Part shown: positions 1,675 through 32,115 of the stretch, piece after piece
How positions within the stretch are numbered: the stretch's first letter is position 1
Layout: every line of letters begins with the position of its first letter
NCBI GenBank assembly: GCA_041395165.1
Contig: JAWLBA010000003.1
Location: 9,900-73,899, forward strand
Length of the DNA: 64,000 nucleotides
Direction of reading: 5' to 3'
From: Verrucomicrobiia bacterium
Lineage (GTDB): Bacteria; Verrucomicrobiota; Verrucomicrobiia; JADLBR01; JAIBCM01
The notes under the pieces: model-generated
What the model saw: the letters and a program-made list of their open reading frames with translations, nothing else
The model's database searches: none
Told to the model about the DNA's origin: nothing
Made by a program: the position numbers and the translations under genes

Positions 1675-2859
1675 ATGCTAACCGTCCAAGAGGCTCAATC
1701 CCAGATTCTGCAATCCCTTATTCCCTTAGCCACCAAAACCATCGCCCTAACCGAAGCCGAAAATCGTGTGCTCGCAGCACCCATTTTTGCTAACGAAGAT
1801 TTTCCACCTTTTGCGCGTTCTGCTGTCGACGGTTACGCCGTAACAGCGGAAGAAGTTCCTGGAACTTTCATAATTTCAGAAATCATTCATGCAGGCCAAT
1901 CTCCCAAACAACCATTAACTCCGGGCACTTGCGCTAGAATTTTTACCGGTGCTCCACTTCCTCAAGGCGCCAACAGCATAGTCATGCAAGAAGAAGTGAA
2001 TGCAGAAGCTAATCAAGTTAAAATTTCTCAAGCTCATCCCCAAATGAATATTCGCCCAAAAGGGGAAGATTATAAAAAAGGTGATTGTTTACTAAAAAAA
2101 GGAACGCCTCTACACGCTGCTCAACTTGCCATCGCGGCTTCTGTTGGCCAAACTCACCTATCCGTTTTTCGTCAACCTCGTATCGCCATCTTAAGCACCG
2201 GTGACGAATTGGTTCCGCCTGATGCCATACCTGCTCCTTACCAAATTCGCGATGCCAACACACTTCTACTAAAAAATTTAATCAAAAAAAGTGGTGGCGA
2301 ATTACTATCGTCACACCTTTTGCCAGATGATTATTCTCAACTACAAACTCACTTGCAACAGGCTCTAACAGCAAAAGCCGATCTTATTCTTTTTTCGGGC
2401 GGTGCTTCTGTTGGCGAAAAAGATTTCACAAAAAAATTACTGCAAGAAAACGGTTTTCACCTGCATTTTGAGCAAATTAATATGCGCCCCGGTAAACCTC
2501 TCATCTTTGCTACGCGCGACAATATCTCGGCTTTTGGCATTCCAGGAAACCCTGTTTCTCTTTTGGTCTGTTTTTATTTATTTATTCAACTTGCCATTCA
2601 AAAAATGCAAGGCATCGAAGCAAAAATCCATTTTTTACATTCGTCTTTAGGAAAAAATTTTGATTATTCGCCCAACCTACGTGAAACCTATTGGCCAGCG
2701 CGATGCGAAACGACCGAACAGGGTGCCGAACTCTTCCCTCTTGCTTGGAAAGGCTCCGGTCATATCGCTAGCTTCGCTTATGCCAATGCTCTTATACGAA
2801 TTCCTTCCGGCACCGGCCCATTTTCCAAAGGTCAACCCCTTTTCTGGCTCCCCTTATAA
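1675..2859 (+). CDS. moeA: Molybdopterin molybdenumtransferase
   Basis: PPFARSAVDGYAV, RIFTGAPLP, LSTGDELV, SGGASVGEKDF, PGKP, GIPGNPVS. Confidence 0.95.
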   Translation: MLTVQEAQSQILQSLIPLATKTIALTEAENRVLAAPIFANEDFPPFARSAVDGYAVTAEEVPGTFIISEIIHAGQSPKQPLTPGTCARIFTGAPLPQGANSIVMQEEVNAEANQVKISQAHPQMNIRPKGEDYKKGDCLLKKGTPLHAAQLAIAASVGQTHLSVFRQPRIAILSTGDELVPPDAIPAPYQIRDANTLLLKNLIKKSGGELLSSHLLPDDYSQLQTHLQQALTAKADLILFSGGASVGEKDFTKKLLQENGFHLHFEQINMRPGKPLIFATRDNISAFGIPGNPVSLLVCFYLFIQLAIQKMQGIEAKIHFLHSSLGKNFDYSPNLRETYWPARCETTEQGAELFPLAWKGSGHIASFAYANALIRIPSGTGPFSKGQPLFWLPL

Positions 2860-2924
2860 CCCACACCATTTGCCACCCTCCTAATCGAGGATTATAATAT
2901 AATAAAAGAGAGCAGGAAAAAATT

Positions 2925-3572
2925 ATGATCCACACGAAAACTCGTTTTGTGAATCGCAACCAAGCAGGTCGAATGCTTGCCTCGCGCTTGTTGAAATATC
3001 AAAACAAAGCCAATACTCTGATTTTAGCGCTTCCACGTGGAGGTGTGCCGGTAGGTTTTCAAATGGCTAACCTTTTGCGCCTTCCTTTAGACATCCTGAT
3101 TGTTCGAAAATTGGGCGTGCCCGGGTTTGAAGAATTAGCCTTTGGCGCCATTGCTTCGGGTGATGTTCTCATGCTTAATCATGAAGTTGTGCAAAGCTTA
3201 AATATTTCTGAAATGACAATTCAACACATTGCCGCAAAAGAACGCCAGGAACTGGAGCGACGCGAAACCATTTATCGCGGCGATAAACCTTTTCCCTCAT
3301 TAATCGATCAAACTATTATTCTTGTCGATGATGGTCTTGCCACAGGCGCCAGCATGCGAGCCGCGATTCGTGCTGTTCGTCAAAAAAAACCGGCAGCCAT
3401 TGTCGTTGCCGTTCCCGTAGGCTCGCTCTCCACTTGCGACGAACTTCAAGAAGAAGCCGATGAAGTGATTTGCGCTTTGACTCCATTACACTTTGAAAGC
3501 GTCGGTGCTTGGTATGAAGATTTTAGCCAAACCACCGATGAAGAAGTTCGAGCACTACTCAAACCATCTTAA
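2925..3572 (+). CDS. Putative phosphoribosyltransferase (COG1926-like)
   Basis: ALPRGGVPVG, VRKLGVPG.EELAFGA, PRPP motif ILVDDGLATGASM, YEDFSQTTDEEV. Confidence 0.88.
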   Translation: MIHTKTRFVNRNQAGRMLASRLLKYQNKANTLILALPRGGVPVGFQMANLLRLPLDILIVRKLGVPGFEELAFGAIASGDVLMLNHEVVQSLNISEMTIQHIAAKERQELERRETIYRGDKPFPSLIDQTIILVDDGLATGASMRAAIRAVRQKKPAAIVVAVPVGSLSTCDELQEEADEVICALTPLHFESVGAWYEDFSQTTDEEVRALLKPS

Positions 3573-3619
3573 AAAATTTCGTTTCCTTATGTTTTTTCTA
3601 ACATAATGATTAACGAACC

Positions 3620-4066
3620 ATGAAAAAACTGTCCCATCTTACCTCCCAAGGAAAACTAAAAATGGTCGACGTGGGATCCAAGCCCATACAAAAACGCATT
3701 GCCACAGCCACCACCGAACTTCAGCTTCGACCTGCAACCATTCGTTTGCTAAAGAAAAAAACATTACCCAAAGGCGACGCCCTAACCTGCGCACAGGTAG
3801 CCGGCATTCAAGCCGCAAAAAAAACCAGCGAACTCATCCCTCTTTGCCATCCACTCGCACTCAACTCAGTTCAAATCGAATTTCGACTACAAAAAGATCG
3901 CATCCAAATTTTCGCTACCGTTTCCTGCCAAGAAAAAACCGGTGCTGAAATGGAAGCTTTAACCGCCGTCGCGATCACTGCTTTAACCCTTTACGATATG
4001 ACCAAAGCAGTTGATCAAACCATGAAGATCACAAATCTTCGCTTGCTAGTAAAAGAAAAATGTTAA
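3620..4066 (+). CDS. moaC: Cyclic pyranopterin monophosphate synthase
   Basis: MVDVG.K, KGDAL..AQVAGIQAAKKTSELIPLCHP, TGAEMEALTA, LYDMTKAVD. Confidence 0.96.
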   Translation: MKKLSHLTSQGKLKMVDVGSKPIQKRIATATTELQLRPATIRLLKKKTLPKGDALTCAQVAGIQAAKKTSELIPLCHPLALNSVQIEFRLQKDRIQIFATVSCQEKTGAEMEALTAVAITALTLYDMTKAVDQTMKITNLRLLVKEKC

Positions 4067-5287
4067 TTAAAGACCCGGCAAAATATTAGATGGTAATTGG
4101 GGCACAGGAGTAGGTTGACCTGCTTTTAAAGCCGATTCCCATGCTGCAGCAGCCTTAGCCCGTTCCGCAGCAGCTTTTACTACCCCCGTTGATTGATTAT
4201 CATTTCCTACAATCGCATCATAAGCCTCCACTGTATAACCATAAGCGCCAACGATAGCCTCTCCTGCCTTAGCATCCGCTTCACGTTTCATGTCCATACA
4301 CCCAGGCACTGTAGCACAAGGCACTTCAAGCAATGTTGATGGATCTCCTAATACCTGATTCATCGCACCACCAAACTCAGCTGGGGCGGGCAACTCTCCT
4401 TGTTGAAGTTTTTCCATAAAATCGCCCGGCCCTGTATTCATAAGCTGTCCAAATGCCACTAAAGCTCCAGTCGATTGAACCGCTAGATTTGCTTGACCTT
4501 CCGCAGCAATACTTACTTTTTCCCAAGCAGCTTTCATGCTAGTACCCGTATCGCGAGCATTCATTACAGCCTCAAATAAATATTGATAATTTTCAGGAAG
4601 CTCATGCAATTTTGTGAGATCGGTGATACTCATTCCTAACTTTGCAACAGCTCTTTCTACCTCATATAATTCTGTCACATATTTTTGCGCTTCTCGAAGC
4701 GCCGCTTGAGCCATAGCATTTGCATCTTTTGCTGCCTTTGAAGCCCCAGGCTGAGCGGCAATTTTCTCCGCTTTTTCCGCAGCTTTTTTGGCCGCATCTA
4801 AAACAATTTTGCTTTGATCATAAGCTTCTGATGTAAATTCGCCTAATCGATGATAGGCTTTCTCCAAGTATTTTAAGGCCTCTATTTTATTAGCACCTTT
4901 TTGAACTTCACCCAATAAACGAGCAAAATCAACCAAAAGAAACTCGTTTGCCTGTCTAATAGCTGTGGTAGCATCCATTATACAAATTGCCCCTCTATCT
5001 GCATGATGCGCAAACCACAAGGCATCCGGCACAGCCTGTTCTGCAGCTACCGCTAATCTTTCCAAATTACCAACTTCAGAAGCCGTCTCTCCAACTTGGG
5101 ATTCAGGAACCAAACTAGCTCGCGTCCATGCGTCTTCAGCCATTTGACGAAGTCGAATAGCTTCGCCAATTTGATTTTTTCCCGCTTCTCTCAATGCTGC
5201 TACCTCTGCTTGAGTTAGCACGACTGAACCTTTACTACCTCTTCCCCTAATACGAGCTAAAATTTGTGCTAATCGACCCTTTGCCAT
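4067..5287 (-). CDS. Hypothetical Ala/Glu/Lys-rich alpha-helical protein
   Basis: 406-aa uninterrupted ORF, helical/coiled-coil composition, no recognisable motif; antisense between moaC and mogA. Confidence 0.7.
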   Translation of the reverse strand: MAKGRLAQILARIRGRGSKGSVVLTQAEVAALREAGKNQIGEAIRLRQMAEDAWTRASLVPESQVGETASEVGNLERLAVAAEQAVPDALWFAHHADRGAICIMDATTAIRQANEFLLVDFARLLGEVQKGANKIEALKYLEKAYHRLGEFTSEAYDQSKIVLDAAKKAAEKAEKIAAQPGASKAAKDANAMAQAALREAQKYVTELYEVERAVAKLGMSITDLTKLHELPENYQYLFEAVMNARDTGTSMKAAWEKVSIAAEGQANLAVQSTGALVAFGQLMNTGPGDFMEKLQQGELPAPAEFGGAMNQVLGDPSTLLEVPCATVPGCMDMKREADAKAGEAIVGAYGYTVEAYDAIVGNDNQSTGVVKAAAERAKAAAAWESALKAGQPTPVPQLPSNILPGL

Positions 5288-5385
5288 GATAAAATTTATT
5301 ACTATTATTTTTAAATTCTAATCAAACAATAAAACGCCATAAAAGTAATTTGTCAAATTTTCAATAGCCAGTATAAAAAATAAAA

Positions 5386-5874
5386 ATGAAAATAGCCCGC
5401 CTTACCCTCAGCGACCGCGCCAGTCAGGGCATTTATCCAGACCAAAGCGGTCCAAAAATAGAACGCGTGATAAGTTTAATTTTTCAAGAATCCATCGAAT
5501 GGCAACATTGTCTTTTGCCCGATGACTTATCGCTCATCGCTGAAAAACTTTCCCACCTTGCTGATAAAGAGAAATGTCATCTCATCCTTACCACTGGCGG
5601 CACAGGTCCTTCCAACCGCGATGTCACTCCCGAAGCAACTCGTCTCGTGTTAGAAAAAGAATTGCCCGGTTTTGGCGAGGCAATGCGCGCTCATTCTTTT
5701 CACAAAGTCAAAACCGCTATTTTATCCCGTGCCACGGCTGGAATTCGCGCTCAAAGTTTGATCATCAACCTGCCTGGCAATCCCAAAGCCATTCAAGAAT
5801 GCCTCGAAATTTTAGGACCAGCTATCGCAGAATGTTTGGATCATATCAGCGGATTTCGCCCAAAATTAGCTTAA
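5386..5874 (+). CDS. mogA: Molybdopterin adenylyltransferase
   Basis: TLSDRAS.G.Y.DQSGP, LTTGGTGPSNRDVTPEAT, LPGFGEAMR, AILSRATAG, NLPGNPKA. Confidence 0.93.
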   Translation: MKIARLTLSDRASQGIYPDQSGPKIERVISLIFQESIEWQHCLLPDDLSLIAEKLSHLADKEKCHLILTTGGTGPSNRDVTPEATRLVLEKELPGFGEAMRAHSFHKVKTAILSRATAGIRAQSLIINLPGNPKAIQECLEILGPAIAECLDHISGFRPKLA

Positions 5875-5876: not shown

Positions 5877-6968
5877 TTAAGCCACAATTTTTTTGCCTGA
5901 TTTTTTAGTTTTATCTTTAGCTGTCGGAAGAGTCAAAATATCCGTCATCGGCTTTCGACCCTCCACTTTTTCAATATAACGGAAAAATTCATCAGCCGTT
6001 TCAAAAAGATGACCTTTTTCGATATAACTATCCGCTGTGAAAGGACTGAATCCTTTCGGGAAAATCATATAACGCCGCTTCATATAATCGCGTGCATGCC
6101 CCAACTCATCCATCATACCCGCAGAAAGGGGTGGGCGCTCTGGGTAAGGATGAATCGCAACGACAGAATGCACTTTCCCCACATACCAATGCAAATCACG
6201 ATGCACAGTATAAGCATAGATCGCAGCCTTATCGACTTCCGAATCAAACCCTTCTACCGGAATTTCGACGGTTTGTGGGTCTACTACCGCCGCATATTTT
6301 CTCAGACGTTCAATAACCTTGTTGACCTCCAGGCGCATGTCCGCCGTAGCATAAGTCATGGAATAACTCGCATAAATCACCCAGGGATTAGGATTCGTAA
6401 CCAACTTATACAAACAATCTGGCGGTTCACCCACTGCGATCACATAATGCGGAATATTCATTGCCTTGGCCCAGTCTTCCGAAAGACTGACTTCTTCATG
6501 CATCCACGATAAAATTTCGTAAATGGTATGATTTCTCTCTTTCAACGCACGAAAGAAAGTGTCTTGAACAGGCGGATTTTGCAGCCGCTTTTGAATCATC
6601 CACTCCGCATCAATCAAAGTCACAATGAGATCCGGTTTAATAAAATCGCGAATAATGCGTTGATCCTTAAACTTACGATTGATACGATTCCATTCCACCG
6701 TTGCAGGCAATCGAACAATCACATCTTTCAAATTGTTTTTCTGAATTTCGTAACCAATTTTGCTATATTCACGTTCGCGAGTAAGTTCAAAAACGTAGTC
6801 GGTCGTTTGCAATAAAAGCTCCAAAGGTTTTTTTCCTTCTTTGGTAAAATCTTTTACCGCATCGAAAATACGAATGTTTTTCCCATTTAATTTTCCTAAT
6901 TCTACAACTTTTTCAAGAAGCGGCCACTCTTCCATCCCGCCGATCATACCTGTGACTAAAGCAATCAT
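5877..6968 (-). CDS. Two-domain protein: NMP-kinase-like N-terminus (degenerate P-loop) + nucleoside 2-deoxyribosyltransferase-like C-terminus
   Basis: MIALVTGMIGG, KPDLIVTLID (archaeal adenylate-kinase-like strand order); IYASYSMT, VVDPQ, HRDLHW, SAGMMDELGHA..K, SPF (NDT-like fold); RBS GGAGG upstream. Confidence 0.6.
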   Translation of the reverse strand: MIALVTGMIGGMEEWPLLEKVVELGKLNGKNIRIFDAVKDFTKEGKKPLELLLQTTDYVFELTREREYSKIGYEIQKNNLKDVIVRLPATVEWNRINRKFKDQRIIRDFIKPDLIVTLIDAEWMIQKRLQNPPVQDTFFRALKERNHTIYEILSWMHEEVSLSEDWAKAMNIPHYVIAVGEPPDCLYKLVTNPNPWVIYASYSMTYATADMRLEVNKVIERLRKYAAVVDPQTVEIPVEGFDSEVDKAAIYAYTVHRDLHWYVGKVHSVVAIHPYPERPPLSAGMMDELGHARDYMKRRYMIFPKGFSPFTADSYIEKGHLFETADEFFRYIEKVEGRKPMTDILTLPTAKDKTKKSGKKIVA

Positions 6969-7060
6969 GCCATCCTCCTAGCAAATACCGGGAAAAATCG
7001 CAACACTCCATTTTACGATTGGCAATTATATTAAACCCTGTTATTTCAAGTCTCTGCCAT

Positions 7061-8611
7061 ATGAAAACCTTTGTCCGTGGTGATATCGACGGATTTTTTG
7101 GCCTCTTCATCGATAATTTGGTCCAATTGATGGTGATCACAACGCTTTGTCCCTTGCTTTGCGGATTGCCTGTTGATTTTGTGAGCACACGTATTTTGCC
7201 TGGCGCCGCACTTTCTATTCTTGTAGGCAATCTTTTCTATGGCTGGCAGGCGCGCCGTTTAGCTAGAAAAACTCATCGCAACGATGTTACTGCTCTTCCC
7301 TATGGTATTAACACCCCCACCGTTTTTGCTTACATTTTTCTAATCATGGCGCCGATTTATCGAGCCACTAACGATGCCAACTTAGCTTGGCGTGCGGGTC
7401 TCTTTGCCTGCTTACTGAGCGGCATCATGGAAATTCTTGGCGCGTTTTGTGCCGATTGGTTACGACGTCACACACCACGCGCGGCACTCTTATCCGCCTT
7501 AGCGGGTGTCGCGATTACTTTTATTGCCATGGGTTTTGTCTTTCAAATTTTCGCCTCACCCGCGCTCGCCATTTTTCCGATGCTACTAATTATCGTGAGC
7601 TACTCTTCTAAATTGCCTCTACCTATTCCAGCGGGTTTAACCGCTGTCCTTATCGGAACAGCTATCGCATGGTTACTGCGAGCTTTTCATTTGCCATACT
7701 TTGTTCCTTCTACTGAAACTCACGCGCTTGGCTTTTACGCTCCACATATCACATTTCATGACACTTTTTCTTTAATCAAAAGCCCTATGGCCTGGCAATA
7801 TTTCTCTATCATTTTGCCCATGGGCCTTTTTAACATTATTGGTTCCTTACAAAATTTGGAAAGTGCTGAGGCTGCTGGCGACTCTTACCCCACACGATCT
7901 TCCATGCTTGTAAACGGCCTCGGCTCCTGCGTGGCGGCTTGTTTAGGAAGCCCTTTCCCCACCACTATTTATATTGGTCATCCCGGTTGGAAAGCGATGG
8001 GGGCTCGCAGCGGTTACTCCATTTTAAACGGTGTTGTTATTACGCTCTTCTGCTCGCTCGGCATGATCACGCTTTTACTCAACTGGATTCCTATCGAAGC
8101 AACGTTGGGTATTTTACTTTGGATCGGTATCATCATCACCGCACAAGCGTTTCAAGCTGTCCCTAAATCACACGCTTTAGCCGTGGCATTAGGACTCATC
8201 CCAACCTTCGCCGCATGGGCGCTGCAACTCATTGAAACCACTTTGCAGGCCGCGGGAACCACACTTTACGAAACCATTTCTCAATTTGGCTCAGCGCTAG
8301 CGATTCATGGTGTCATCGCCCTCAATCAAGGCTTCCTTCTTACTAGCACTTTGCTAGCTGCTTTCCTTGTCTTCATTATCGAAAAACAATGGCAAAAAGC
8401 GGCAGTCACCCTTTTCATCGCTTCACTACTTTCCTGGCTAGGCTTGATTCACGCTTACCAACTCACACCCGCTGGCATTCAAAACTCGCTCACCCTCGGT
8501 GCAGCGCCCGAATTTGCCTACACCTATTTGGCAAGCGGTATAGCTATTTTAATTTTAAGCCGTATAGTAAAAATAAGACATGAGTCGCCTCAAAAAAATT
8601 CTTCTCGTTAA
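7061..8611 (+). CDS. NCS2/AzgA-like nucleobase permease
   Basis: GDIDGFFGLFIDNL, TALPYGINTP, QNLESAEAAGD.Y, PFPTTIYIGHPGWK.MGARSGYS; ~13 TM helices; ATG 7061 preferred. Confidence 0.8.
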   Translation: MKTFVRGDIDGFFGLFIDNLVQLMVITTLCPLLCGLPVDFVSTRILPGAALSILVGNLFYGWQARRLARKTHRNDVTALPYGINTPTVFAYIFLIMAPIYRATNDANLAWRAGLFACLLSGIMEILGAFCADWLRRHTPRAALLSALAGVAITFIAMGFVFQIFASPALAIFPMLLIIVSYSSKLPLPIPAGLTAVLIGTAIAWLLRAFHLPYFVPSTETHALGFYAPHITFHDTFSLIKSPMAWQYFSIILPMGLFNIIGSLQNLESAEAAGDSYPTRSSMLVNGLGSCVAACLGSPFPTTIYIGHPGWKAMGARSGYSILNGVVITLFCSLGMITLLLNWIPIEATLGILLWIGIIITAQAFQAVPKSHALAVALGLIPTFAAWALQLIETTLQAAGTTLYETISQFGSALAIHGVIALNQGFLLTSTLLAAFLVFIIEKQWQKAAVTLFIASLLSWLGLIHAYQLTPAGIQNSLTLGAAPEFAYTYLASGIAILILSRIVKIRHESPQKNSSR

Positions 8612-10451: not shown

Positions 10452-11888
10452 ATGAAAAAGTTTATCTCCCAACTTGTCATCAATGGCAAACTTTGCCATG
10501 CGTCAGATCGAAACACGCTCACTCTCATCAACCCTGCTACTGAAAAAAAACTTTGTGAAGTAGCCTCTGCCTCTCTCAAAGATTTGGAAACCAGCGTTAC
10601 AGGCGCTCAAAAAGCTTTTGAAAAAAGCTGGCGCGACATGACACCCGGCAAAAGAACTGAAATTCTTTTTCGCTTCACCCAGCTCATTGTTCAACATCAA
10701 GAAGAACTTGCTCAATTAGAAATGCTGAACATCGGCATGCCCATTTCCAATGCCAGAGACGAGCTTCAATTAACCTTTCGTATTGCTGCCTATTATACCG
10801 ATGCCATTTCAAAATTTTGTGGTCAAACTATTCCCGTAGCTCGTGGCGGATTTGATTTTACTGTTCGCTCACCCCTTGGTGTTGTCGCTGCCATTGTGCC
10901 ATGGAATTTTCCCTTATCGATTGCCGCATGGAAAGTTTTTCCTGCACTTGCTGCAGGCAATTGCGTTGTGCTAAAACCTGCCAGCCTCTCTCCACTCACT
11001 GCTATCAGACTTGGAGTTTTGGCATTGGAAGCCGGTTTGCCAGATGGCGTTTTACAGGTTTTACCAGGAAGCGGTCAGCGACTGGGCAACGCTTTAGTGC
11101 AACATCCTCTCATTCGCAAAATTTCTTTTACTGGTTCTACAGAAATCGGCACTCGCATTATGAAAATGGCCGCCGACGATATGAAACGCGTTTCTTTAGA
11201 GCTTGGTGGCAAATCTCCCAACATCGTTTTTAATGATGCCGACTTAGAAAAAACTGCCGCCCTTTGTTCTATTAGCGTCTTTGACAACACGGGACAGGAT
11301 TGTTGCGCGCGAAGTCGAGTTTTTGTTGAACATAGCATCTTTGAAGAATTTGTTAAATAAATTATCCAAGCTAGCAACAACCTCGTTATCGGTGATCCCA
11401 ACCACCCCAAAACACAAATAGGACCACTTATTTCCAAACAACATCGTGATAGTGTTCAAACCTACTTGGATTCTGTTCCAGTCTATTGCAAAAAAATGGC
11501 TTGTGGCAAAACACCACTCCCTAAAAAAGGTTTTTATATCCGACCCACTGTTATTCTAGGTTGCAACACAAGTGAAAAAGTATGGCGAGAAGAAATTTTT
11601 GGACCCGTCGTTTGCATTCGACCTTTTCGTGACGAAAACAGCATGTTGCGCGAAGTCAACGCATCGCACTACGGGTTAAGCGGTTCGATTTGGACGAATG
11701 ATTTAAAACGCGCCCTACGCGTTGCAAAACGTGTTGAAAGTGGAGTGCTCAGCATCAACTCCGCAAATAGCGTTCATGTTGCCGCACCTTTTGGCGGTTT
11801 CAAACGCAGTGGAATCGGGCGCGATCTGGGGATGACCGCAATGGAAGGTTACACCGAACTAAAAAATATTTATATTACAGAGGATTAA
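10452..11888 (+). CDS. NAD-dependent aldehyde dehydrogenase (PuuC-like), interrupted by one in-frame TAA at 11358-11360
   Basis: IVPWNFP, LKPA, FTGST, LELGGKSP, GQDCCARSR, EEIFGPV, PFGGFKRSGIGR; both ORF-track pieces share one frame (FVK*IIQASNNLVIGDP). Confidence 0.9.
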
Positions 11889-21511: not shown

Positions 21512-22439
21512 TTCCAATCGGAATCGAAAAACCTCGCACAAAATCTGTCGCTGCCATCCTCTGTTTCCCCTCCAACTGCACTTCACGCAATAAAAGTCCT
21601 CCCTTTTTTGCAGCAACCAAAATGCCGTGTTTATCCACTTTCATGACTTCACCTGGTTTACCGTGACATCGATTGGATAAAATCGTTTTAAAAATTTTTA
21701 AACATTTTCGCTGATTCTCTACTTTCAGCCAAGTATAAGCTCCTGGCCAAGGAATCATCGCGCGAATTTGCCGATCCACGGTCACCTGCTCTTGCTTCCA
21801 ATCAATCCAACCTTCTTCTTTTTTAATTTTTTTAGCATAAGTCGCCTCCTTTTCTTTCTGCTTCGTGCGAGGCGCTTTCCCTTTTCGCAACAAATCTAAT
21901 CCCTCCTTCAAAGTCTTAGGAGCTAACTCTGCCAAACGATCATGCAACATCTCCGCCGTCTCATCGCTTCGAATCGAAAGGCGTTGAGAACACAATATAT
22001 CGCCGGTGTCCAAACCGTCATCCATCCACATGATCGTAATGCCCGAATAACGCTCACCCGCTCGAATAGCAGCTTGAATCGGTGACGCACCTCGATACTT
22101 GGGCAGCAACGACGCGTGAACATTCAAACAACCTAATTTTGGCAAATTCAAAATCGCTTGCGATAAAATCTGTCCGTAAGCAAACACTACAAACACGTCT
22201 GCTTCTAAATAACGTAACTGCGCAATTACGGTTTTTTCATTAATTTTTTGCGGTTGGTAAATACGAATATGCCATTTTAAAGCCGCCTGTTTAATCGGGC
22301 TCGTCTGCAAACGCATCTGTCGACCTGCAGGTCGATCAGGTTGCGTAACAACGGCCACCACTTCATGCTCCTCACTTTTTGCCAAACTATTTAAACAAGG
22401 CACCCCAATTTCACCTGTGCCAATAAACACCACTTTCAT
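21492..22439 (-). CDS. fmt: Methionyl-tRNA formyltransferase
   Basis: VVTQPDRPAGR, AYGQIL, NVHASLLPKYRGASPI, GLDTGD, QLEGK. Confidence 0.97.
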   Translation of the reverse strand: MKVVFIGTGEIGVPCLNSLAKSEEHEVVAVVTQPDRPAGRQMRLQTSPIKQAALKWHIRIYQPQKINEKTVIAQLRYLEADVFVVFAYGQILSQAILNLPKLGCLNVHASLLPKYRGASPIQAAIRAGERYSGITIMWMDDGLDTGDILCSQRLSIRSDETAEMLHDRLAELAPKTLKEGLDLLRKGKAPRTKQKEKEATYAKKIKKEEGWIDWKQEQVTVDRQIRAMIPWPGAYTWLKVENQRKCLKIFKTILSNRCHGKPGEVMKVDKHGILVAAKKGGLLLREVQLEGKQRMAATDFVRGFSIPIGTILESP

Positions 22440-23596
22440 AAAGATACCTGACGAATACGAATCTGTTTTCTTAAAAAAGTGGGAATATCCAAATTTTCAC
22501 CCTGATAAAAAGTTGCATCCGTTTTTTCAAATCGGCCACGATTAGGAGTTTCAAAAGCAAAAGCTTCCTGTTTTAATTCTTGTCCTTTTGCCTTGTCTTG
22601 AGAAACAGGCAAAGGCGCTCGCTCTTCCGACTCTTGCAAGGGCGCTTCGATTGGTGTTTCACTTTTTTGAACTCCTGCCGTCCAAATCACCAATTTTACC
22701 TTACCTTCGTAACTTTCCTCTAAAATGGCATTAAAAATAAAATGCGTATTTTCGTTGCCCACATGCTGCTTCAAAAATTCTGTCGCTTTCTTCACTTCTG
22801 CCAAAGCCAACTTAGGTCCTCCTAAGACTGCTACCAAAACTTCATGTGCCGAAGTCGCTGCATCTCGCAACCAATCATTCGCAATCACTGTCGCAAGCGC
22901 TTCGTCCATAGCATGAGTTCCCTTGCCTTCACCCCATCCAAATCCTCCTTGCAAACTGACACCATGCGATATTTTCGTAATCGCTTTCAATACTTCTTCA
23001 GTCTCCGAAAAAACCAGCCCTTTTTTCGTAATCATTTCCATCAAACCACTCAAACATTGTCTCATCGCTTCAATGACAGCGCTCCATTTTTGATCTGCCC
23101 TTTCGCCCTCTGCCCAACCCTCTTTGGTCAACTGATCTGCTGGAAAAATAAAAACGGCCTCTCCAGTTTTTCTTAATTCCCGCAACATTTGTATAGCCTG
23201 ATTCACACTTCGAACACCTTCCCATTGAAAAGGCGTCGAAACTAAAATAATAGGAAGCGCTCCCTTCTCTTTAACCCAGTTAATAACTGATGTTAATCCG
23301 CCCGCCCCTAATCCTCCTCCTAACGAAACCACCAAAAAAACGATCGCAGATGTTTTAATCTCATTTTTGATTTCTTGCTCATGCAATCGAAATACTTGCG
23401 CACCCACCGATTTATCCCCACGAACTCCCCACCCTCGTAACAAATCCGCACCAATCCATCGCTTCTCTTTTAATGAGCAATTTTTCAAAGCTTGTTCATC
23501 AGCATCCCAACCCATAACTTGCACCGAATCCGTTGCCTTGATCGCATCGATTACCTGAAGCCCTGTGCCGCCTAAACCAAAAATCTGAATCTTCAT
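22436..23596 (-). CDS. ftsZ: FtsZ, highly divergent GTPase domain
   Basis: Directly after ftsA; tubulin/FtsZ layout (IFGLGGTG, GGGLGAG, PFQWEG) and C-terminal ENLDIPTFLRK; ATG 23596 preferred. Confidence 0.85.
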   Translation of the reverse strand: MKIQIFGLGGTGLQVIDAIKATDSVQVMGWDADEQALKNCSLKEKRWIGADLLRGWGVRGDKSVGAQVFRLHEQEIKNEIKTSAIVFLVVSLGGGLGAGGLTSVINWVKEKGALPIILVSTPFQWEGVRSVNQAIQMLRELRKTGEAVFIFPADQLTKEGWAEGERADQKWSAVIEAMRQCLSGLMEMITKKGLVFSETEEVLKAITKISHGVSLQGGFGWGEGKGTHAMDEALATVIANDWLRDAATSAHEVLVAVLGGPKLALAEVKKATEFLKQHVGNENTHFIFNAILEESYEGKVKLVIWTAGVQKSETPIEAPLQESEERAPLPVSQDKAKGQELKQEAFAFETPNRGRFEKTDATFYQGENLDIPTFLRKQIRIRQVSL

Positions 23597-23609
23597 AGCT
23601 TTATTAACT

Positions 23610-24836
23610 TTAAACAATAAATTTCATTTTTTTCAAAGCGCGACTAAATCGCTGCCCTAATGAAGCATCACCTCTCTCTTGCAAAACCCGTTTTTGCCCC
23701 AACAACAAAACTCCCAAAACGGTTGAAAGTTCCGGACGCGCCAACTCGCCCACATTACCATTAAATGCGTGCTCTTTCACCAAAGTAACAGGTAACTGAA
23801 AAATCGTCTCGGCTAAAGTCTGAATTCCTTGAGTTCGCGAACTACCCCCAGTAAGAAAAATCCCTGCTGATAATAAGTCCAAAAAATTGTCTCCCAACTG
23901 TTTTTTAACAATCAACAACGTCTCCTCCCATCGCGCCCTCATGACTTTAATTAAACTTTCCCGATAAATCGATTTCCCAGCAAAACCGCTCATCGGTTTC
24001 AGAGCAATCACTTCATCGCGAACTCGATCTTCTCCGACCACCGCACCTTGCGAGCATTTCAAGTCTTCCGATAATCGCAATGGCAAATTAAACGCGCGAC
24101 TCAAGTCCTGTGTCACATGGTCTCCGCCTACCCCCAAAACACCTAGCGACTCAATCTGTCCATTAATATAAGCCGCATAATGGGTCAACCCTCCGCCCAA
24201 ATCAATTACAAGCGCTCCCAACTTCTTTTGCTCTTCCGTTAACACAGCTTCAGCCGAAGCCATAGGACTCAATGAAAAATCGCACACATCAATTTGCAAC
24301 TCACGCACACGATCCATTACATTGTGCAAGCGACTTGCTACACCGTGTACAATTAAAAATTCACCCTCAACCTGCGTTCCATTCATTCCCACGGGATCAG
24401 AAACGCGCGGCCCCCCATCAATGGAAAAACCTTTCGGCAAAGTCGCCACATGACATCGACCTTCTGGCAAAGACATTTCTTCAGCTAAATCTCGCGCCTC
24501 CTCGATATCTTCTTCCGTCACCACCTTTTTTTCCTGAGAAATCATCGTGGAACCTCGCTGCGCCACACATTCCAAATGAGCACCACTTAAGGCAACAAAA
24601 GCCTCATGAATGACAACATCAGCATTTTCCTCCGCTTTTGCCATTGCTTCGCGCAAAGCGTCTGAAGCCGTCTTGGGGTCAAACACATCACCTTTTCGCA
24701 CTCCAGCAGAACTTGATTCTCCTAAACCCAACACTTTCAATACTCCATCATGCCGGACATGCCCCACCGCCACCACCATCTTACTCGTGCCAGTTTCTAC
24801 TGCCACCAATGTTGTCTCTTTCGAACGAAATAACAT
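23610..24836 (-). CDS. ftsA: Cell division protein FtsA
   Basis: ETGTSK, S.GVRKG, IDLGGGLT, GGDHVTQDL, LTGGSS. Confidence 0.93.
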   Translation of the reverse strand: MLFRSKETTLVAVETGTSKMVVAVGHVRHDGVLKVLGLGESSSAGVRKGDVFDPKTASDALREAMAKAEENADVVIHEAFVALSGAHLECVAQRGSTMISQEKKVVTEEDIEEARDLAEEMSLPEGRCHVATLPKGFSIDGGPRVSDPVGMNGTQVEGEFLIVHGVASRLHNVMDRVRELQIDVCDFSLSPMASAEAVLTEEQKKLGALVIDLGGGLTHYAAYINGQIESLGVLGVGGDHVTQDLSRAFNLPLRLSEDLKCSQGAVVGEDRVRDEVIALKPMSGFAGKSIYRESLIKVMRARWEETLLIVKKQLGDNFLDLLSAGIFLTGGSSRTQGIQTLAETIFQLPVTLVKEHAFNGNVGELARPELSTVLGVLLLGQKRVLQERGDASLGQRFSRALKKMKFIV

Positions 24837-24839
24837 AAT

Positions 24840-25706
24840 CTAAATTTCCATTGGTGCGAATGTCACCGGCACATTACGATTGACCGTGAGATCCGCACTC
24901 AACAATTTACGATGCACTTCACCACAATAATTTAAAATTTTTTCAAATCGTTCCAATTGCGTCTTCAACTGATTCGAAGTAGCCGAAAACCTGACTTTTC
25001 CGCCCTCCTCCAAATTCACCTCCAAAATTCCTTCTTTCGACACATCAATGGAAACCAAATGAAACTGAGCTTGAGCCAATCGTTGCTCCATTAAAGACAG
25101 CAAAAAAAGTGCGCTATAAACCTCACCCGATTCAATCTTTTCGCCAAGCACAATTTTTTCACTATCCACGCCTCGAATTTCCGGCAAATGTCGAAAATCC
25201 TCACCAGGTCGCAAACGCATCACCAACCCTTCTTCATCAATCGTATAATAAGATTCTTCCTGTTCTTCCAACAACGTTTTAATCACAATTCGCGCTAAGG
25301 GTCGTCGTTCCGTCACACGAATCACTAAACGATTTGGCAACTCCCTCAAAACCTCAGCCGTTTGCACCGAAGATTGTGACTCCAAACGCTGTTGAATCGC
25401 TCGCAAATCCAACGCTAAAACATTCGCTTCGGCAGGAATATCTGCCCACCTCAACACTTGATCCCTCTTCAATCGACCTTGCAACTCCACATCCACACGC
25501 GTCAAAGCATAACGCGGATTTTGATACAATAACCCATTCAATGCCCAACGCCCTAAAAAAAATCCCAACACCAACACCAAACCAACTCCACTTAAACCCA
25601 ATACAACATTTCGCAACCGCTTTGCGCCATGATGTCGCCCTCGACTTTTCTGAATGCTCGCACGCAACGAAATCGTTTTTACTCGTCTTACGTCGATTAC
25701 CATCAC
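24840..25706 (-). CDS. ftsQ: Cell division protein FtsQ/DivIB
   Basis: Single TM, POTRA (LALDLRAIQQRLE..V..AEV.R.LPNRL.IRVTERRP); between ddl and ftsA. Confidence 0.88.
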   Translation of the reverse strand: MMVIDVRRVKTISLRASIQKSRGRHHGAKRLRNVVLGLSGVGLVLVLGFFLGRWALNGLLYQNPRYALTRVDVELQGRLKRDQVLRWADIPAEANVLALDLRAIQQRLESQSSVQTAEVLRELPNRLVIRVTERRPLARIVIKTLLEEQEESYYTIDEEGLVMRLRPGEDFRHLPEIRGVDSEKIVLGEKIESGEVYSALFLLSLMEQRLAQAQFHLVSIDVSKEGILEVNLEEGGKVRFSATSNQLKTQLERFEKILNYCGEVHRKLLSADLTVNRNVPVTFAPMEI

Positions 25707-25733
25707 TTAATTTTCTTTTCCCAAATGAACTCT

Positions 25734-26633
25734 TCATAAAATAACATTATTTTTCTTTCTCATTGCTTGCGATAAAAACACAATGCGTTCACACAAATCC
25801 GCAAATCCTATCCCGGCTGCAGCTGCGGCCTTTGGCAACAAACTGGTTTCTGTCATACCAGGAATTGTATTCGCTTCCAAAACCCAGGGTCGCTCTTGCT
25901 CATCCAACAAAACATCCACTCGCGAATAAACCTCACAACCCAAAGCTCGATGTGCACTCAAAGCGGCTTCCTGAACTGCTTCCTTGACTGATTTTGATAA
26001 ATTTGCGGGACAATGATACAACGTTCGACCTGAAGTATATTTATTTTGATAATCATAAAACCCTTCCTGTGGTTCAATATGAACTACTGGCAAAGCTTGA
26101 TCTCCCAAAATGCCAACTGTTAGCTCTTTACCTACAATCATCTGCTCTACGATTACCTCGTCATCATACTGAAAAGCAAGCGTCAAAGCCGAATCCACTT
26201 TTTCTTGTGACATCACTCGAGAAATCCCAACACTGGACCCTTGCCGCGACGGTTTCACCACAAATGGTAAAGCCAATGAAGGATGCTGACCCTTTTTACA
26301 AATTTCAAAAGCAGGCGTAGGCACCTCATGATTCACAAAAATCTCTTTCGAAACCACTTTATCAAAGGCCTTCTCACTGGCCATCTGTCCACAACCCGTG
26401 TAAATTAAATTTTGCTTATCCAAAATAGCTTGCACTTGGCCATCTTCACCAAACGTCCCATGCAACGCGATAAAAACCACATCGCAAACAGGCACCCCAA
26501 ACTCTTCGGAAACCACATCCAATTCGCTGACTTCATGACCTTTTTCACGCAAAGCTTTCGCCACAGCCGCTCCCGAACGCAAAGAAACTTCGCGCTCTGC
26601 CGAAATGCCACCTTTTAAAACCACAATCTTCAT
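25734..26633 (-). CDS. ddl: D-alanine-D-alanine ligase
   Basis: GGISAEREVSLRSG, LHGTFGEDG, GSSVG, EANTIPGMTETSLLP. Confidence 0.97.
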   Translation of the reverse strand: MKIVVLKGGISAEREVSLRSGAAVAKALREKGHEVSELDVVSEEFGVPVCDVVFIALHGTFGEDGQVQAILDKQNLIYTGCGQMASEKAFDKVVSKEIFVNHEVPTPAFEICKKGQHPSLALPFVVKPSRQGSSVGISRVMSQEKVDSALTLAFQYDDEVIVEQMIVGKELTVGILGDQALPVVHIEPQEGFYDYQNKYTSGRTLYHCPANLSKSVKEAVQEAALSAHRALGCEVYSRVDVLLDEQERPWVLEANTIPGMTETSLLPKAAAAAGIGFADLCERIVFLSQAMRKKNNVIL

Positions 26634-28939
26634 TTTGTTATCTTAACACTTTCATTATCTCCTAAAATGATAATTTCCGTTTCCAATTCAACGCCGCGTT
26701 CCGCACGAGCGCGTTGCCGCACCAACTCAATTAATTGCAACACATCCGATGCAGTTGCGGTACCATTGTTTACGATAAAATTGCCGTGCTCTTGACTAAC
26801 CCGTGCTCCCCCAACCGATAAACCTTTTAACCCCAACTCGTCCACCAATTTACCCGCAGGACTCAACGAAGGGTTCTTAAAAATACAACCCGCACTCGAT
26901 GCTGCCGGTTGCGATTCCCAACGTTTTTCACTAAACTTACGCAAACGTTCTTCCACAACTTCTTTTGCTTCTTTTTTACCCTGTAAAACTGCTGATAAAA
27001 CAATTTTATTCTGTAACGTTGGCACACAACGATAATCAGCTTGAATCCCATCTCGTAACAATTCAGTAACTTCACCTTTTTGATTCATGCAACGCACCGA
27101 AACCACTCGTTCAAACATCCACCCTCCCATAGCCCCTGCATTCATAAATAATGCACCACCTAAACTCCCTGGAATTCCTTCCATAAACTCAAAACCACCT
27201 AATCCTTCGCGCTTCGCAGCCGCCACAATCGATTTTAATTTTGCGCCCGCCTGCGCAAAAACTTTATCTTTTACAATTTCAATCTTTGAAAAAAAATCCT
27301 CATGCAAATGCAAACAAACCCCACGAATCCCTCCATCTTTAATTAATAAATTTGATCCCCTTCCAATAAATGTGACAGGCATAGCGTTTTTTTCGCACAA
27401 TTGCAAAACTCTCACTAAAGATTCTTCCCCATCCGGCTCACACCAAAACTCCGCTGGCCCACCCACACGCAAAGTAGTGTGCCGACGCAAAGGCTCATTA
27501 CGAACCACACGTCCTCGGTCTCCAACCACTTTTATTAACTCTCGATAAAATTTCAAATGTTCTACCAAAATCTGCGTCACTTTTCCAATATCACCCGCTC
27601 CCAACACCACAACACAATCGCCTGGCTTCACTTCATGCACCAGTTCTTGTGCCAATGCTAAGCTTTGACCTTGAAAAGAAACTGCCCCATGCCCGGCTAC
27701 CTCAACGGCACGAAACAAATTTTCCCCAGTCACCTCCGGCCAATCCTTTGCTGACTCATCCGCTGGATAAATTCCCGTCAAAAACAAGCGATCTGCCAAA
27801 TCAAAAGCTTTAGCGAAATCCTCCCTTAACGCTTTCGTGCGACTGAACCGATGCGGCTGAAAAACTACCACTAACCGCCTGCCAGTCGCCACCTGCTTTG
27901 CAGCTTCTAGCGTCGCTCGAATTTCAGTGGGATGATGTCCATAATCATCAATTACTAAAAAATGATCACACTCCCATTTAACCTCAAACCTACGACGCGC
28001 TCCTTGAAAAGAAGCAAGTCCTTCCACAATCATTTTTTCACTTAACCCCGCTTCATGCGCCACGGCAATTGCTCCCAACGCGTTTCGAACGTTATGCGAA
28101 CCTGGCAAAGATAAGTGTACTCTCTCCAGCCATAATTTCCCCTTTATCCACACATCAAAACGCGACCCCGATTTATCAAAGACAACATTTTGCCCCTGAA
28201 CATCAACTGAATGACTCAATCCAAAACTAATAACATTTTCAAAATTTTCAAAAACTCGCGTCGCTCCCTCATCATCTCCACAATAAAAAATTTTCCCTTT
28301 CGTTTGTTCTCCCAACTCTCGAAAAACCGATTCAATCGCCTGCAAAGAAGAATAAAAATCCAAATGCTCCTTTTCAATATTTAACACCAAAGAAAAATGA
28401 GGCGCATACTTAGCCAGTGTGCCATCGCTTTCATCTCCTTCAGCAATAAACCAATCCCCCTCACCAATTTTCGCGCTTGCTCCTAACTGCGTCACCACGC
28501 CTCCCACATAGAAAGAACTTTGTGTCTCATGAAACAACCAGGCCAATAAACTTGTCGTCGTCGTTTTTCCGTGCATTCCAGCTACGACAATAGATTTTTT
28601 CTCTACCAACAAAGCCGCCAACAATTCCGCGCGATGAAAAATAGGAATTTTTCTCGTTCGAGCCGATTCCAATTCCACATTACCCTCATCAATTGCCGAT
28701 GAAACCACAACCGCTTGAGCTTGATCCACAAAATTCGACTGATGACCTTGAAAAAAAACCAATCCTTTTTCTTCCAATTGTTGAATAATTCGGCTTTCCA
28801 CCAAATCAGAACCCGAAACCTGATAATCTTTTTCCAATAATAAACGGGCCAATCCCGACATCCCACTCCCTCCTACTCCCACAAAATGCCAAAAACGGTT
28901 GGGCACACGATGATGCAAGCATTGCAGAATTGCACTCAT
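26630..28939 (-). CDS. murC: MurC-MurB fusion (UDP-MurNAc-L-Ala ligase + UDP-GlcNAc-enolpyruvate reductase)
   Basis: GVGGSGMSGLA, HGKTTTT, EGDESDG, DDYGHHPTE; then HTTLRVGGPA, GRGSNLL, GIPGSLGG..MNAGA, SAGCIFKNP, HGNFIVN. Confidence 0.95.
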   Translation of the reverse strand: MSAILQCLHHRVPNRFWHFVGVGGSGMSGLARLLLEKDYQVSGSDLVESRIIQQLEEKGLVFFQGHQSNFVDQAQAVVVSSAIDEGNVELESARTRKIPIFHRAELLAALLVEKKSIVVAGMHGKTTTTSLLAWLFHETQSSFYVGGVVTQLGASAKIGEGDWFIAEGDESDGTLAKYAPHFSLVLNIEKEHLDFYSSLQAIESVFRELGEQTKGKIFYCGDDEGATRVFENFENVISFGLSHSVDVQGQNVVFDKSGSRFDVWIKGKLWLERVHLSLPGSHNVRNALGAIAVAHEAGLSEKMIVEGLASFQGARRRFEVKWECDHFLVIDDYGHHPTEIRATLEAAKQVATGRRLVVVFQPHRFSRTKALREDFAKAFDLADRLFLTGIYPADESAKDWPEVTGENLFRAVEVAGHGAVSFQGQSLALAQELVHEVKPGDCVVVLGAGDIGKVTQILVEHLKFYRELIKVVGDRGRVVRNEPLRRHTTLRVGGPAEFWCEPDGEESLVRVLQLCEKNAMPVTFIGRGSNLLIKDGGIRGVCLHLHEDFFSKIEIVKDKVFAQAGAKLKSIVAAAKREGLGGFEFMEGIPGSLGGALFMNAGAMGGWMFERVVSVRCMNQKGEVTELLRDGIQADYRCVPTLQNKIVLSAVLQGKKEAKEVVEERLRKFSEKRWESQPAASSAGCIFKNPSLSPAGKLVDELGLKGLSVGGARVSQEHGNFIVNNGTATASDVLQLIELVRQRARAERGVELETEIIILGDNESVKITK

Positions 28940-30045: not shown

Positions 30046-30048
30046 AAA

Positions 30049-31200: not shown

Positions 31201-32093
31201 AGATTTTTATTGTCCGGACATCGCAACATGAGAAGCCTCAATTTTTGAGGCGAAGCGGCTTTAGAAACTTCAGTTTCCACTGGAATCTTTAACTGCATAC
31301 CCACACCAATTTTATTAGCATCTTGAATTTGATTAGCTTCTAAAATTAATTGTGGTTTCGTGCCAAATTTTTTAGCAATTCGATAAAGCGTGTCACCCTT
31401 GATCACCGTATAATTCTCCATTCTTTTCGCAGTAGATTTTGTTTCTTCAACAGGTTTAGTCACAGTATTTTTCACACTGGCAACTACAGGCGTGGAATTG
31501 ATAGCAGGAGAAGAAACCGCTGTTGTTGGTTGCGATTGTGGCACCGGCATTACAGGTAAATTTTGCTGAGTCGCAATCATTTTCGAATCGGAAACTTTCA
31601 AAATCTGACCCAAACGAATCTTATCATTCGTCAACTGATTCCATTTCAACAAATTCACCAAAGTAATTTTGTATTGCTTGGCAATTTTACTTAATGTGTC
31701 ACCTTTCGCCACCGTGTGCAAAAGCGGCGCTGAAGCCACCATCTCTTTTTTTACTTCCTGAACAGCAGCCTTAGGCGTCATCACAGGCGGAGGCAAAGTA
31801 GAAGTGACAGCGGGTTTGGCAATATCCTTCTCCTCCGAAGCTACAGTAGGAGTCGTTTGACTGATTTCCTCTGCTATTTTTTGAACTTGCGGTTCGCTGA
31901 CTTCCATTTTTTTTCTGGATCGACTCTTTTGCGGTTTTTCCGAAACTTCGCTCACACTAGTTTCCGCACCACCTCGCCAATATTGAAACGCAAAAGCGCC
32001 ACCGATCACCACAAGATGAACAACTAAGACAATTAAAAAGACATGCGACAAACGAATACCTTCTTTACTTTCTTTTTCCCATTGATTTTCCAT
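31128..32093 (-). CDS. Membrane-anchored LysM-domain protein (2 LysM); true stop probably near 31207
   Basis: N-terminal TM (VFLIVLVVHLVVIGG), HTVAKGDTLSKIAKQY and YTVIKGDTLYRIAKKF; ATG 32093 preferred; overlap into ftsW suggests an indel. Confidence 0.85.
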   Translation of the reverse strand: MENQWEKESKEGIRLSHVFLIVLVVHLVVIGGAFAFQYWRGGAETSVSEVSEKPQKSRSRKKMEVSEPQVQKIAEEISQTTPTVASEEKDIAKPAVTSTLPPPVMTPKAAVQEVKKEMVASAPLLHTVAKGDTLSKIAKQYKITLVNLLKWNQLTNDKIRLGQILKVSDSKMIATQQNLPVMPVPQSQPTTAVSSPAINSTPVVASVKNTVTKPVEETKSTAKRMENYTVIKGDTLYRIAKKFGTKPQLILEANQIQDANKIGVGMQLKIPVETEVSKAASPQKLRLLMLRCPDNKNLCFLNGRVPRFYFLSCSVFVDWAW

Positions 32094-32115
32094 ATTAATT
32101 TCTCCTTTTTTGAAT

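Follow-up and report, generated by a model that had tools for sequence, protein, structure and literature searches.

Introduction

What does a protein do that places the fold of an adenylate kinase (AK), stripped of its kinase signatures, in front of the fold of a nucleoside 2'-deoxyribosyltransferase (NDT)? The question is raised by a gene in a stretch of 64,000 nucleotides from a Verrucomicrobiia bacterium (contig JAWLBA010000003.1), which we refer to as the window. The gene is an open reading frame (ORF) on the minus strand at 5877..6968, with an ATG start, 363 aa and a TAA stop; residue numbers below are those of this protein, and coordinates are those of the 64-kb window. An earlier note, made from the letters alone, had described the product as a kinase-like domain fused to an NDT-like domain and had proposed that an inactive kinase gates a nucleotide N-glycosidase. 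We propose, at about even confidence and from sequence and predicted structure, that the gene product is a 2'-deoxynucleoside 5'-monophosphate (dNMP) N-glycosidase that would release 2-deoxyribose 5-phosphate (dR5P), with its AK-derived domain as a non-catalytic partner.

The known dNMP N-glycosidases of the DNPH1 type are chiefly those of mammals, whose DNPH1 is a drug target, and those of a small number of phage and antibiotic pathways. To our knowledge, their physiological role in bacteria is essentially undescribed. The Verrucomicrobiota clade of the present family is invisible to Pfam and annotated as "hypothetical protein". Its members are among the most conserved proteins of their carriers, with up to 80% identity across orders, and in at least two groups that are very far apart the family lies among genes of deoxynucleotide metabolism.

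Domain architecture and distribution

The window protein alone gave no access to its relatives. It had no match in Pfam, PF05014 (Nuc_deoxyrib_tr) included, even at E<=10, and only noise against NCBIfam and the PDB sequences. A profile built from its clade only found nothing significant in the PDB and no longer detected adenylate kinases. The homology was exposed only by a wide family profile, made from about 250 distant relatives. A word-index search returned 295 homologs, the best 120 of which share 57-94% identity over the full length; the source-named proteins among these 120 come from Verrucomicrobiota (Methylacidiphilum, Methylacidimicrobium, Verrucomicrobiales and others) and are all called "hypothetical". 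An exhaustive HMMER search gave 252 representative clusters at E<=1e-3, mostly of ~340 aa and with 23-45% identity. Given the 295 homologs, the 252 clusters and the ~110 columns that are invariant among 25 diverse members of the Verrucomicrobiota clade, the ORF lies far beyond chance, and its ATG start matches the M[RK]VLVTGM N-termini of the homologs.

Independent lines of evidence, from Pfam matches of relatives, the family profile and the structural models, agree on the fusion that the earlier note had described. Among 39 distant relatives, Pfam recognised AAA_17 in 31 and Nuc_deoxyrib_tr in 6 (best E 4e-8). The first ~140 positions of the family profile matched archaeal-type adenylate kinases at E=8e-14 to 1e-6. 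Over its C-terminal half the matches were to DNPH1/Rcl (E ~0.008) and to MilB/BcmB, a CMP N-glycosidase, within E 0.008-0.05, and true nucleoside transferases matched more poorly, at E ~0.8. The AlphaFold2 model that was derived from the alignment of the family (pLDDT 91.4, pTM 0.90) placed residues 1 to ~190 with the archaeal AKs 6LN3, 1NKS and 7OWL in Foldseek (TM 0.68-0.77, E ~1e-7), and the remainder with NDT. When the C-terminal domain was modelled by itself (pLDDT 88), the top 23 PDB matches were all NDT or DNPH1 structures (TM 0.56-0.75, E down to 3.5e-6), and the model has the flavodoxin-like α/β fold of the NDT superfamily (~150 residues), which the note had called for in this half of the protein.

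Accordingly, the protein divides into an N-terminal domain of the archaeal-type adenylate-kinase (AdkA/AAA_17) fold (N-domain; residues 1-192, 6393..6968, minus strand), as found by both Foldseek and the profile, and a C-terminal domain of the NDT/DNPH1 fold (C-domain; residues 193-340, 5949..6392, minus strand) identified by Foldseek, the profile and PF05014. A variable, Lys-rich tail follows (residues 341-363, 5880..5948, minus strand), which is modelled with low confidence and is not conserved. The strings on which the note had relied were all located: VTGMIGGMEE at residues 5-14, KPDLIVTLID at 111-120, IYASYSMT at 198-205, HRD at 256-258, SAGMMDELGHA at 282-292 and the Lys at 297.

The family is rare and patchy in its distribution. 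The gene was found in 4 of 150 high-quality Verrucomicrobiota genomes, all four belonging to one family, in 5 of the 9 genomes of the window organism's own order, and in 1 of 401 genomes of the Niyogibacteria phylum. Named relatives also occur in WOR-3, Woesearchaeota (DPANN), Lentisphaerota and the candidate phyla radiation (CPR), and 10 of 20 distant clusters that were looked up were metagenomic singletons. All source annotations read "hypothetical protein", apart from one "adenylate kinase", and literature searches for a fusion of a kinase-like and an NDT domain found no description. Most likely, as judged from sequence, the proteins form a two-domain family, so far uncharacterised, whose NDT-superfamily (d)NMP glycosidase is joined to a recruited pseudokinase domain. 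The note had further suggested horizontal transfer from archaea. The fold family of the N-domain is typically archaeal and there are relatives in DPANN, but CPR and other bacteria have relatives just as well, and no direction of transfer emerged; it is only for the N-domain that archaea are a plausible source.

Several metagenome-assembled genome records titled Blastochloris, Blastochloridaceae, Aliarcobacter or Akkermansia muciniphila (loci L008, L009, L031, L049, L051, L039 and L062) carry clearly verrucomicrobial versions of the gene and are probably mislabelled bins.

The predicted C-terminal active site

Conservation was counted over 108 distant representatives, here and below. In the NDT superfamily the catalytic triad consists of Tyr, Asp or Asn, and Glu, with the Tyr orienting the Glu and helping to exclude ribo-substrates (PMC12884076). 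NDT positions were taken from an hhalign comparison with the L. leichmannii enzyme, whose sequence was confirmed to be identical to PDB 1F8X; the alignment covered only the C-terminal two-thirds of the C-domain. The predicted nucleophile, E288, closes the segment S282-A-G-M-M-D-E288 (6105..6125, minus strand), is present in 108/108 and aligns with Glu93 of DNPH1 and Glu98 of NDT; G284 of the same segment is kept in 107/108. The earlier note had placed the catalytic Glu in the DELG of this segment, and both its conservation and its alignment to the two known nucleophiles bear this out. The predicted triad Asp is D258 of the HRD string (6195..6197, minus strand; 105/108), which aligns with Asp72 of NDT and with the Asp of QDLEW in DNPH1. 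The triad Tyr would be Y199 of IYASYSMT (6372..6374, minus strand; 108/108), assigned only by its position in strand β-1. In the profile alignment to human DNPH1, the family's "tvhRDlew...SsGvidElkeA" stands over "IHEQDLEW...SLGVGYELGRA".

The residue six positions before the Glu bears on the substrate. S282 aligns with Ser87 of DNPH1, a phosphate binder, and with Asp92 of NDT, a 5'-OH binder. In rat DNPH1, Ser87 and Ser117' hold the 5'-phosphate and Glu93 binds the sugar (PMC3834327). Characterised hydrolases of the NDT superfamily use (d)NMPs and transferases use deoxynucleosides; the 5'-OH is held by Asp or Asn in NDTs, and hydrolases have non-charged residues there (PMC12884076). Across the present family the position is occupied by Ser in 87 members, Thr in 15, Ala in 4, and Gly and His in 1 each, and the Asp or Asn of nucleoside 2'-deoxyribosyltransferases never occurs. 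Since the position holds Ser or Thr and never Asp or Asn, a 2'-deoxy, 5'-phosphorylated substrate appears to be favoured, and with it the note's choice of a nucleotide over a nucleoside N-glycosidase.

A further residue points in another direction. P231 (6276..6278, minus strand), the first residue past strand β-2, is conserved in 107/108, and all known transferases carry a water-excluding Pro after β-2 (PMC12884076). DNPH1 shows a gap or Thr in the P231 column of the profile alignment, and the water-open site, with no Pro after β-2, that is expected of DNPH1-type hydrolases was not found in the family. The equivalence of P231 to the transferase Pro is topological only, and a profile search against the PDB yielded no NDT alignment spanning P231. 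This mismatch with DNPH1 keeps transfer, instead of hydrolysis, in play.

The loop S308-P-F-T311 (6036..6047, minus strand), whose SPF is kept in about 100/108, aligns near the "KPIN123" region of NDT, which completes the active site of the neighbouring subunit; by analogy, the loop may serve a similar role.

The N-terminal kinase-like domain

Replacements in the N-domain were read by chaining the family alignment with the alignments of the profile to AKs. The Walker A motif, G-x-P-G-x-G-K/G/S-T-T with an Mg-binding Thr, is represented in the window protein by GMIGGMEE, within the degenerate P-loop VTGMIGGMEE (residues 5-14, 6927..6956, minus strand). The Walker Lys column holds Glu or Asp in the clade, with Glu14 in the window protein and Asp in most members. 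The Mg-binding Thr-Thr of AK is replaced by Trp-Pro, the NMP-site "DRDxxR" by LLQTTDY, the "DTH" by RLP and the LID arginines by KRLQNP. Compared with the G-I-S-G-x-G-[KR] of distant members, the clade's P-loop contains a one-residue insertion, and the same altered loop, G[MP][IV][AV]G[LM], is found in the clade's nearest outgroups in WOR-3 and Woesearchaeota.

More of the kinase is retained elsewhere in the family. The Walker column is K/R in 76/108 distant members by alignment, or in 71 of the 104 that have the P-loop segment when counted by motif match, with Ser or Thr next in only 11 of these 71. The His of DTH, gone from the window clade, is kept in 96/108, and the family consensus at the NMP site is "ENILN".

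Methanococcal AKs (PDB 6PJW, 1KI9, 3H86 and 1KHT) carry the Lys-less Walker A sequence GVPGVG[GS]TT and are deposited as adenylate kinases. Because active methanococcal AKs are Lys-less, a missing Walker Lys alone is not proof of inactivity; phosphotransfer is unlikely in the window protein because all four kinase elements have been lost. The N-domain of the window clade is, on this evidence, probably a pseudokinase. The inactive kinase of the earlier note is supported by the loss of all four signatures in the clade, but not by the Lys-less P-loop as such; the note's sensor that gates the glycosidase is conjectural.

Other parts of the N-domain have been kept. The strand KPDLIVTLID (residues 111-120, 6609..6638, minus strand), in which the note had rightly seen a likeness to archaeal adenylate kinases, aligns with their "NPD(L/M)I(I/A)VV" strand, and its D113 is near-invariant family-wide. 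The last long helix of the domain (residues 149-170, 6459..6524, minus strand) carries W155 (106/108) and E159 (102/108), which are conserved across the family as strongly as the catalytic residues. The pTM of 0.90 indicates a fixed arrangement of the two domains. The W155/E159 helix may contribute to the active site of the C-domain or to the domain interface, and if so, the N-domain could be a structural partner, a ligand-binding regulator or both.

Genomic context

In Verrucomicrobiota, the gene is repeatedly followed by deoC. We sampled 80 loci, 73 of which were informative; deoC lies directly downstream on the same strand in 31 of the 73 and nearby in 2 more, and in seven loci the two reading frames overlap by 4 or 1 bp. 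The downstream neighbour is a bona fide deoxyribose-phosphate aldolase, scoring 227-249 bits against the TIGR00126 equivalog (cut-off 117). On a maximum-likelihood tree, deoC adjacency occurs in a deep clade of ~60% identity and in most subclades and needs at least 7 changes, and of the 48 rows without adjacency, 22 fall in one tight freshwater clade. The gene and deoC were probably paired ancestrally, the pair having been split repeatedly since. An argument from a missing DeoB was considered and rejected, since nearly all of the Verrucomicrobiota sampled lack deoB, carriers of the gene and others alike, and PF01791 is present in most of them.

A second context comes from the distant, Walker-A-bearing subfamily, for which 44 metagenomic loci of at least 3 kb were examined and the neighbours confirmed by Pfam. 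In 38 of the 44, at least one of NUDIX (16), tmk (13), dCMP deaminase (10), ndk (10), deoC (4) or thyA (1) lies nearby. This context is independent of, and concordant with, the deoC linkage in Verrucomicrobiota. In human cells, DCTD makes hmdUMP, which DTYMK would phosphorylate onward and which DNPH1 removes (PMC13184875); by analogy, the dCMP deaminase and thymidylate kinase near the gene would be the prokaryotic counterparts of DCTD and DTYMK. The contexts of the DPANN and WOR-3 members that were examined held nothing informative.

One closed Niyogibacteria (CPR) genome of 0.84 Mb has tmk, thyA, folA, a DUF6899 gene, the gene itself and a NUDIX gene in a row, with a dCMP deaminase gene on the opposite strand. 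Neither ribonucleotide reductase (RNR) of class I/II (PF02867) or class III (PF13597) nor deoC was detected in this genome. The organism is apparently RNR-less and dependent on deoxynucleotide salvage, and because RNR and deoC are both absent, a salvage role for the gene is suggested in this single genome. An attempt to generalise from this RNR-less CPR case failed, the gene being present in only 1 of the 401 genomes of the phylum.

DUF6899 accompanies the gene more widely. A DUF6899 gene lies 6-47 bp upstream of it in loci L096 (91-456) and L097, directly precedes it in the Niyogibacteria locus L085 (4242-4952) and also accompanies it in L100, L102, L134 and L136; all are deoxynucleotide-metabolism clusters of one CPR-like lineage, and the DUF6899 protein may be a functional partner. 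In another lineage (loci L121-L150), the gene is flanked by a response-regulator receiver gene, upstream and on the opposite strand, by a NUDIX gene and, downstream, by genes for a membrane-anchored thioredoxin-like protein and a DsbB-family protein (14-16 loci). The latter two are a disulfide-formation pair, here beside a cytoplasmic nucleotide enzyme.

Discussion

The analyses show the two folds, the retention of the catalytic residues, the disappearance of those of the kinase and the linkage to other genes; the substrate, the product, hydrolysis as opposed to transfer, and the role of the N-domain we infer as follows. The C-domain would use covalent catalysis, with E288 as its nucleophile and Y199 and D258 assisting, to cut the N-glycosidic bond of 2'-deoxynucleoside 5'-monophosphates, whose 5'-phosphate S282 would accommodate. 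A free base and dR5P would result, and DeoC would next split the dR5P into glyceraldehyde-3-phosphate and acetaldehyde, so that the gene and deoC together could lead in two steps from dNMPs, which DNA turnover yields, to central metabolism. An alternative role for the same activity would be a DNPH1-like clean-up of unwanted (aberrant) dNMPs. The N-domain may take part in the structure of the active site through W155 and E159, may bind nucleotides as a regulatory module, or may do both.

The closest known counterpart is DNPH1/Rcl, the 2'-deoxynucleoside 5'-phosphate N-hydrolase or 5-hydroxymethyl-dUMP N-hydrolase, which shares the fold (TM 0.6-0.7) and is the best sequence match of the family's C-domain profile. 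Both have the same Tyr/Asp/Glu triad and the same phosphate-position Ser six before the Glu, the product of DNPH1 is the substrate of DeoC, and the human pathway partners of DNPH1, dCMP deaminase and thymidylate kinase (PMC13184875), match the prokaryotic neighbours. However, DNPH1 is a single-domain homodimer of ~150 aa, to which the window protein adds a 190-aa AK-derived N-domain; identity is ~16-19%, the conserved Pro after β-2 is missing in DNPH1, and its IRGG phosphate loop corresponds to SYSMT in the window protein. The NDTs of L. leichmannii (1F8X) and Chroococcidiopsis (8PQS) likewise share the fold, the nucleophile Glu and the Asp, but they are stand-alone enzymes acting on nucleosides, and their 5'-OH-binding Asp92 is Ser in the window family. 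For the N-domain, archaeal AdkA (6LN3, 1NKS, 1KI9 and 7OWL) provides the fold (TM up to 0.77) and the best profile match (E=8e-14 across ~140 residues, among them those of the P-loop and "PDxI" strands), whereas its Walker Lys, DRDxxR NMP site, DTH His and LID arginines are missing in the window protein. The AMP nucleosidase Amn and PpnN are nucleotide N-glycosidases that also carry an extra nucleotide-binding regulatory domain. The parallel is conceptual only, as Amn (PNP-like fold) and PpnN (LOG fold) have unrelated catalytic folds and ribonucleotide substrates, and no homology is implied.

Several observations weigh against a dR5P-releasing N-glycosidase with a non-catalytic N-domain. P231 is near-invariant at a place where transferases, but not DNPH1, carry the water-excluding Pro, and the sequence likeness of the C-domain to DNPH1 is marginal when taken alone (E ~0.01). 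The adjacency to deoC is absent in 40 of the 73 informative Verrucomicrobiota loci, the only deoC of the window genome is of a different subtype and lies on another contig, away from the gene, and the closed Niyogibacteria genome has the gene but no detectable deoC. In addition, the extreme conservation of the N-domain within the clade fits an active, other function better than a mere relic.

The strongest rival, which we regard as doubtful, is a deoxyribose-5-phosphate transferase that would exchange the bases of dNMPs, re-balancing or salvaging dNMP pools, with hydrolysis as a side reaction. Its model is phage DmtZ, a dAMP hydrolase and deoxyribose-5-phosphate transferase of PurZ0 phages (PMC12884076). 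DmtZ is an NDT-superfamily enzyme that acts on a dNMP and combines a hydrolase-type 5' pocket with the transferase-type Pro, a mixed signature that accompanies both hydrolysis and dR5P transfer (PMC12884076) and that recurs in the present family as the non-charged Ser at -6 together with P231. Gordonia-phage proteins of DmtZ size were the top viral structural matches: the best is a 145-aa protein, and a Ghobes protein stands at rank 26, both being probably of the DmtZ type. Of the genes found nearby, tmk, ndk, thyA and that for dCMP deaminase serve anabolism, and the Niyogibacteria genome, having neither RNR nor deoC, must salvage deoxynucleotides. DmtZ itself occurs as a single domain or fused to a Dut-like domain, not to a kinase-like one, has Asn for Asp in its triad and serves Z-base DNA synthesis. 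Against a transferase, the RNR-less case is a single genome, in a phylum where 1 of 401 genomes has the gene, the Verrucomicrobiota carriers examined possess RNR, and the match of P231 to the transferase Pro is one of topology. The tight and often overlapping pairing with deoC in Verrucomicrobiota makes most sense if dR5P is released free.

A bifunctional enzyme is the next alternative, and an unlikely one overall. Here the N-domain would be a working kinase for a deoxynucleoside, a dNMP or deoxyribose, and a glycosyl-cleaving C-domain would use the product, or the two would act in the reverse order; in a variant, a nucleoside 2'-deoxyribosyltransferase would be fused to a deoxynucleoside kinase. 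The P-loop kinase fold, the K/R and DTH His of many distant members, the active methanococcal AKs with Lys-less P-loops and the strong conservation of the N-domain within the clade, which suggests function, all speak for it. They are countered in the window clade by the acidic residue in the Walker column and the disappearance of the NMP-site, DTH and LID motifs. In the distant members, the Mg-binding Ser/Thr follows the K/R in few cases and "ENILN" has replaced "DRDxxR", and the family as a whole lacks the 5'-OH-binding Asp/Asn of nucleoside transferases. Such an enzyme is possible for the Walker-A-bearing relatives and unlikely for the window clade.

A role in defence, which the earlier note had entertained in the form of nucleotide depletion, would make the protein an anti-phage or conflict effector (a TIR/SLOG-like N-glycosidase) that depletes nucleotides or NAD when triggered via a kinase-like sensor. 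Such a role is very improbable: the NDT fold is distantly related to TIR, weak TIR structure matches appear at ranks 24 and 35 and the phyletic distribution is patchy, but PADLOC gave no relevant match for the window protein and 4 relatives, PHROG gave no family match, the neighbours (rsmE, deoC, tmk, ndk, dCMP deaminase) are housekeeping genes largely of deoxynucleotide metabolism with no defence islands among them, the 57-80% identity across the phylum and the ~110 invariant columns are unlike fast-evolving conflict genes, and a structural search found the two-domain architecture in no viral protein.

If the gene product is indeed a dNMP N-glycosidase, it would provide methanotrophic and freshwater Verrucomicrobiota with a short path by which dNMPs from DNA reach central carbon, would account for the presence of deoC without deoB in the Verrucomicrobiota carriers, and would be a natural case of a pseudokinase recruited to a glycosidase. 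A more far-reaching version, which we put forward tentatively and consider clearly less probable than not, takes the family to be a hitherto unrecognised class of deoxynucleotide-processing enzymes and the AK-derived pseudokinase to be an integral and possibly allosteric part of a DNPH1-like site, with a DeoC shunt in Verrucomicrobiota and base-swapping salvage in the CPR and DPANN relatives. If this were true, the DeoC shunt would bypass nucleotidase, nucleoside phosphorylase and phosphopentomutase, and the Walker-A-bearing relatives, which sit in ultra-small CPR/DPANN genomes (one of them without any RNR), would swap the bases of dNMPs, thereby supplying all four DNA precursors by salvage.

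Other features of the window

The gene stands in the window as a monocistronic unit, convergent with mogA (5386..5874, plus strand) and divergent from a gene for a 530-aa polytopic membrane protein (7019..8611, plus strand), which has no significant match in Pfam or NCBIfam and is not recognisable as a nucleobase permease. A promoter and terminator scan gave background level only. Nearby lie a molybdenum cofactor (Moco) cluster, consisting of modA-like, moeA, a phosphoribosyltransferase gene, moaC and mogA, and a puu-like cluster. None of these surroundings (Moco cluster, puu-like cluster, membrane protein) is conserved in relatives.

Moco or sulfur-carrier genes adjoin the gene in two independent settings. 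In the 22-member freshwater "subdivision 6" clade, the genes that come next encode, in this order, a ThiF+rhodanese protein of the MoeB/MoeZ type, a DUF192 protein and a ComM-like Mg-chelatase, and in the window it adjoins mogA, moaC and moeA (1675-5874); these adjacencies may be coincidence. Within the Moco string of the window, between moaC and mogA, lies a gene for a 406-aa Ala/Glu/Lys-rich protein (4067-5287, minus strand), probably a coiled coil, which belongs to no Pfam or NCBIfam family.

The puu-like cluster contains genes for a glutamine amidotransferase, an iron-containing alcohol dehydrogenase, an aldehyde dehydrogenase, a glutamine-synthetase-like protein and an amino-acid permease. 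Its aldehyde-dehydrogenase-like gene, so identified by its sequence, appears to be divided between ORFs of 302 aa (10452-11360) and 140 aa (11466-11888), both on the plus strand, which may reflect a frameshift, a pseudogene or an assembly error. Finally, the GC skew stays strongly negative (-0.28 to -0.375) across positions 22000-38000, where successive genes lie on the minus strand, and is stronger there than elsewhere in the window.

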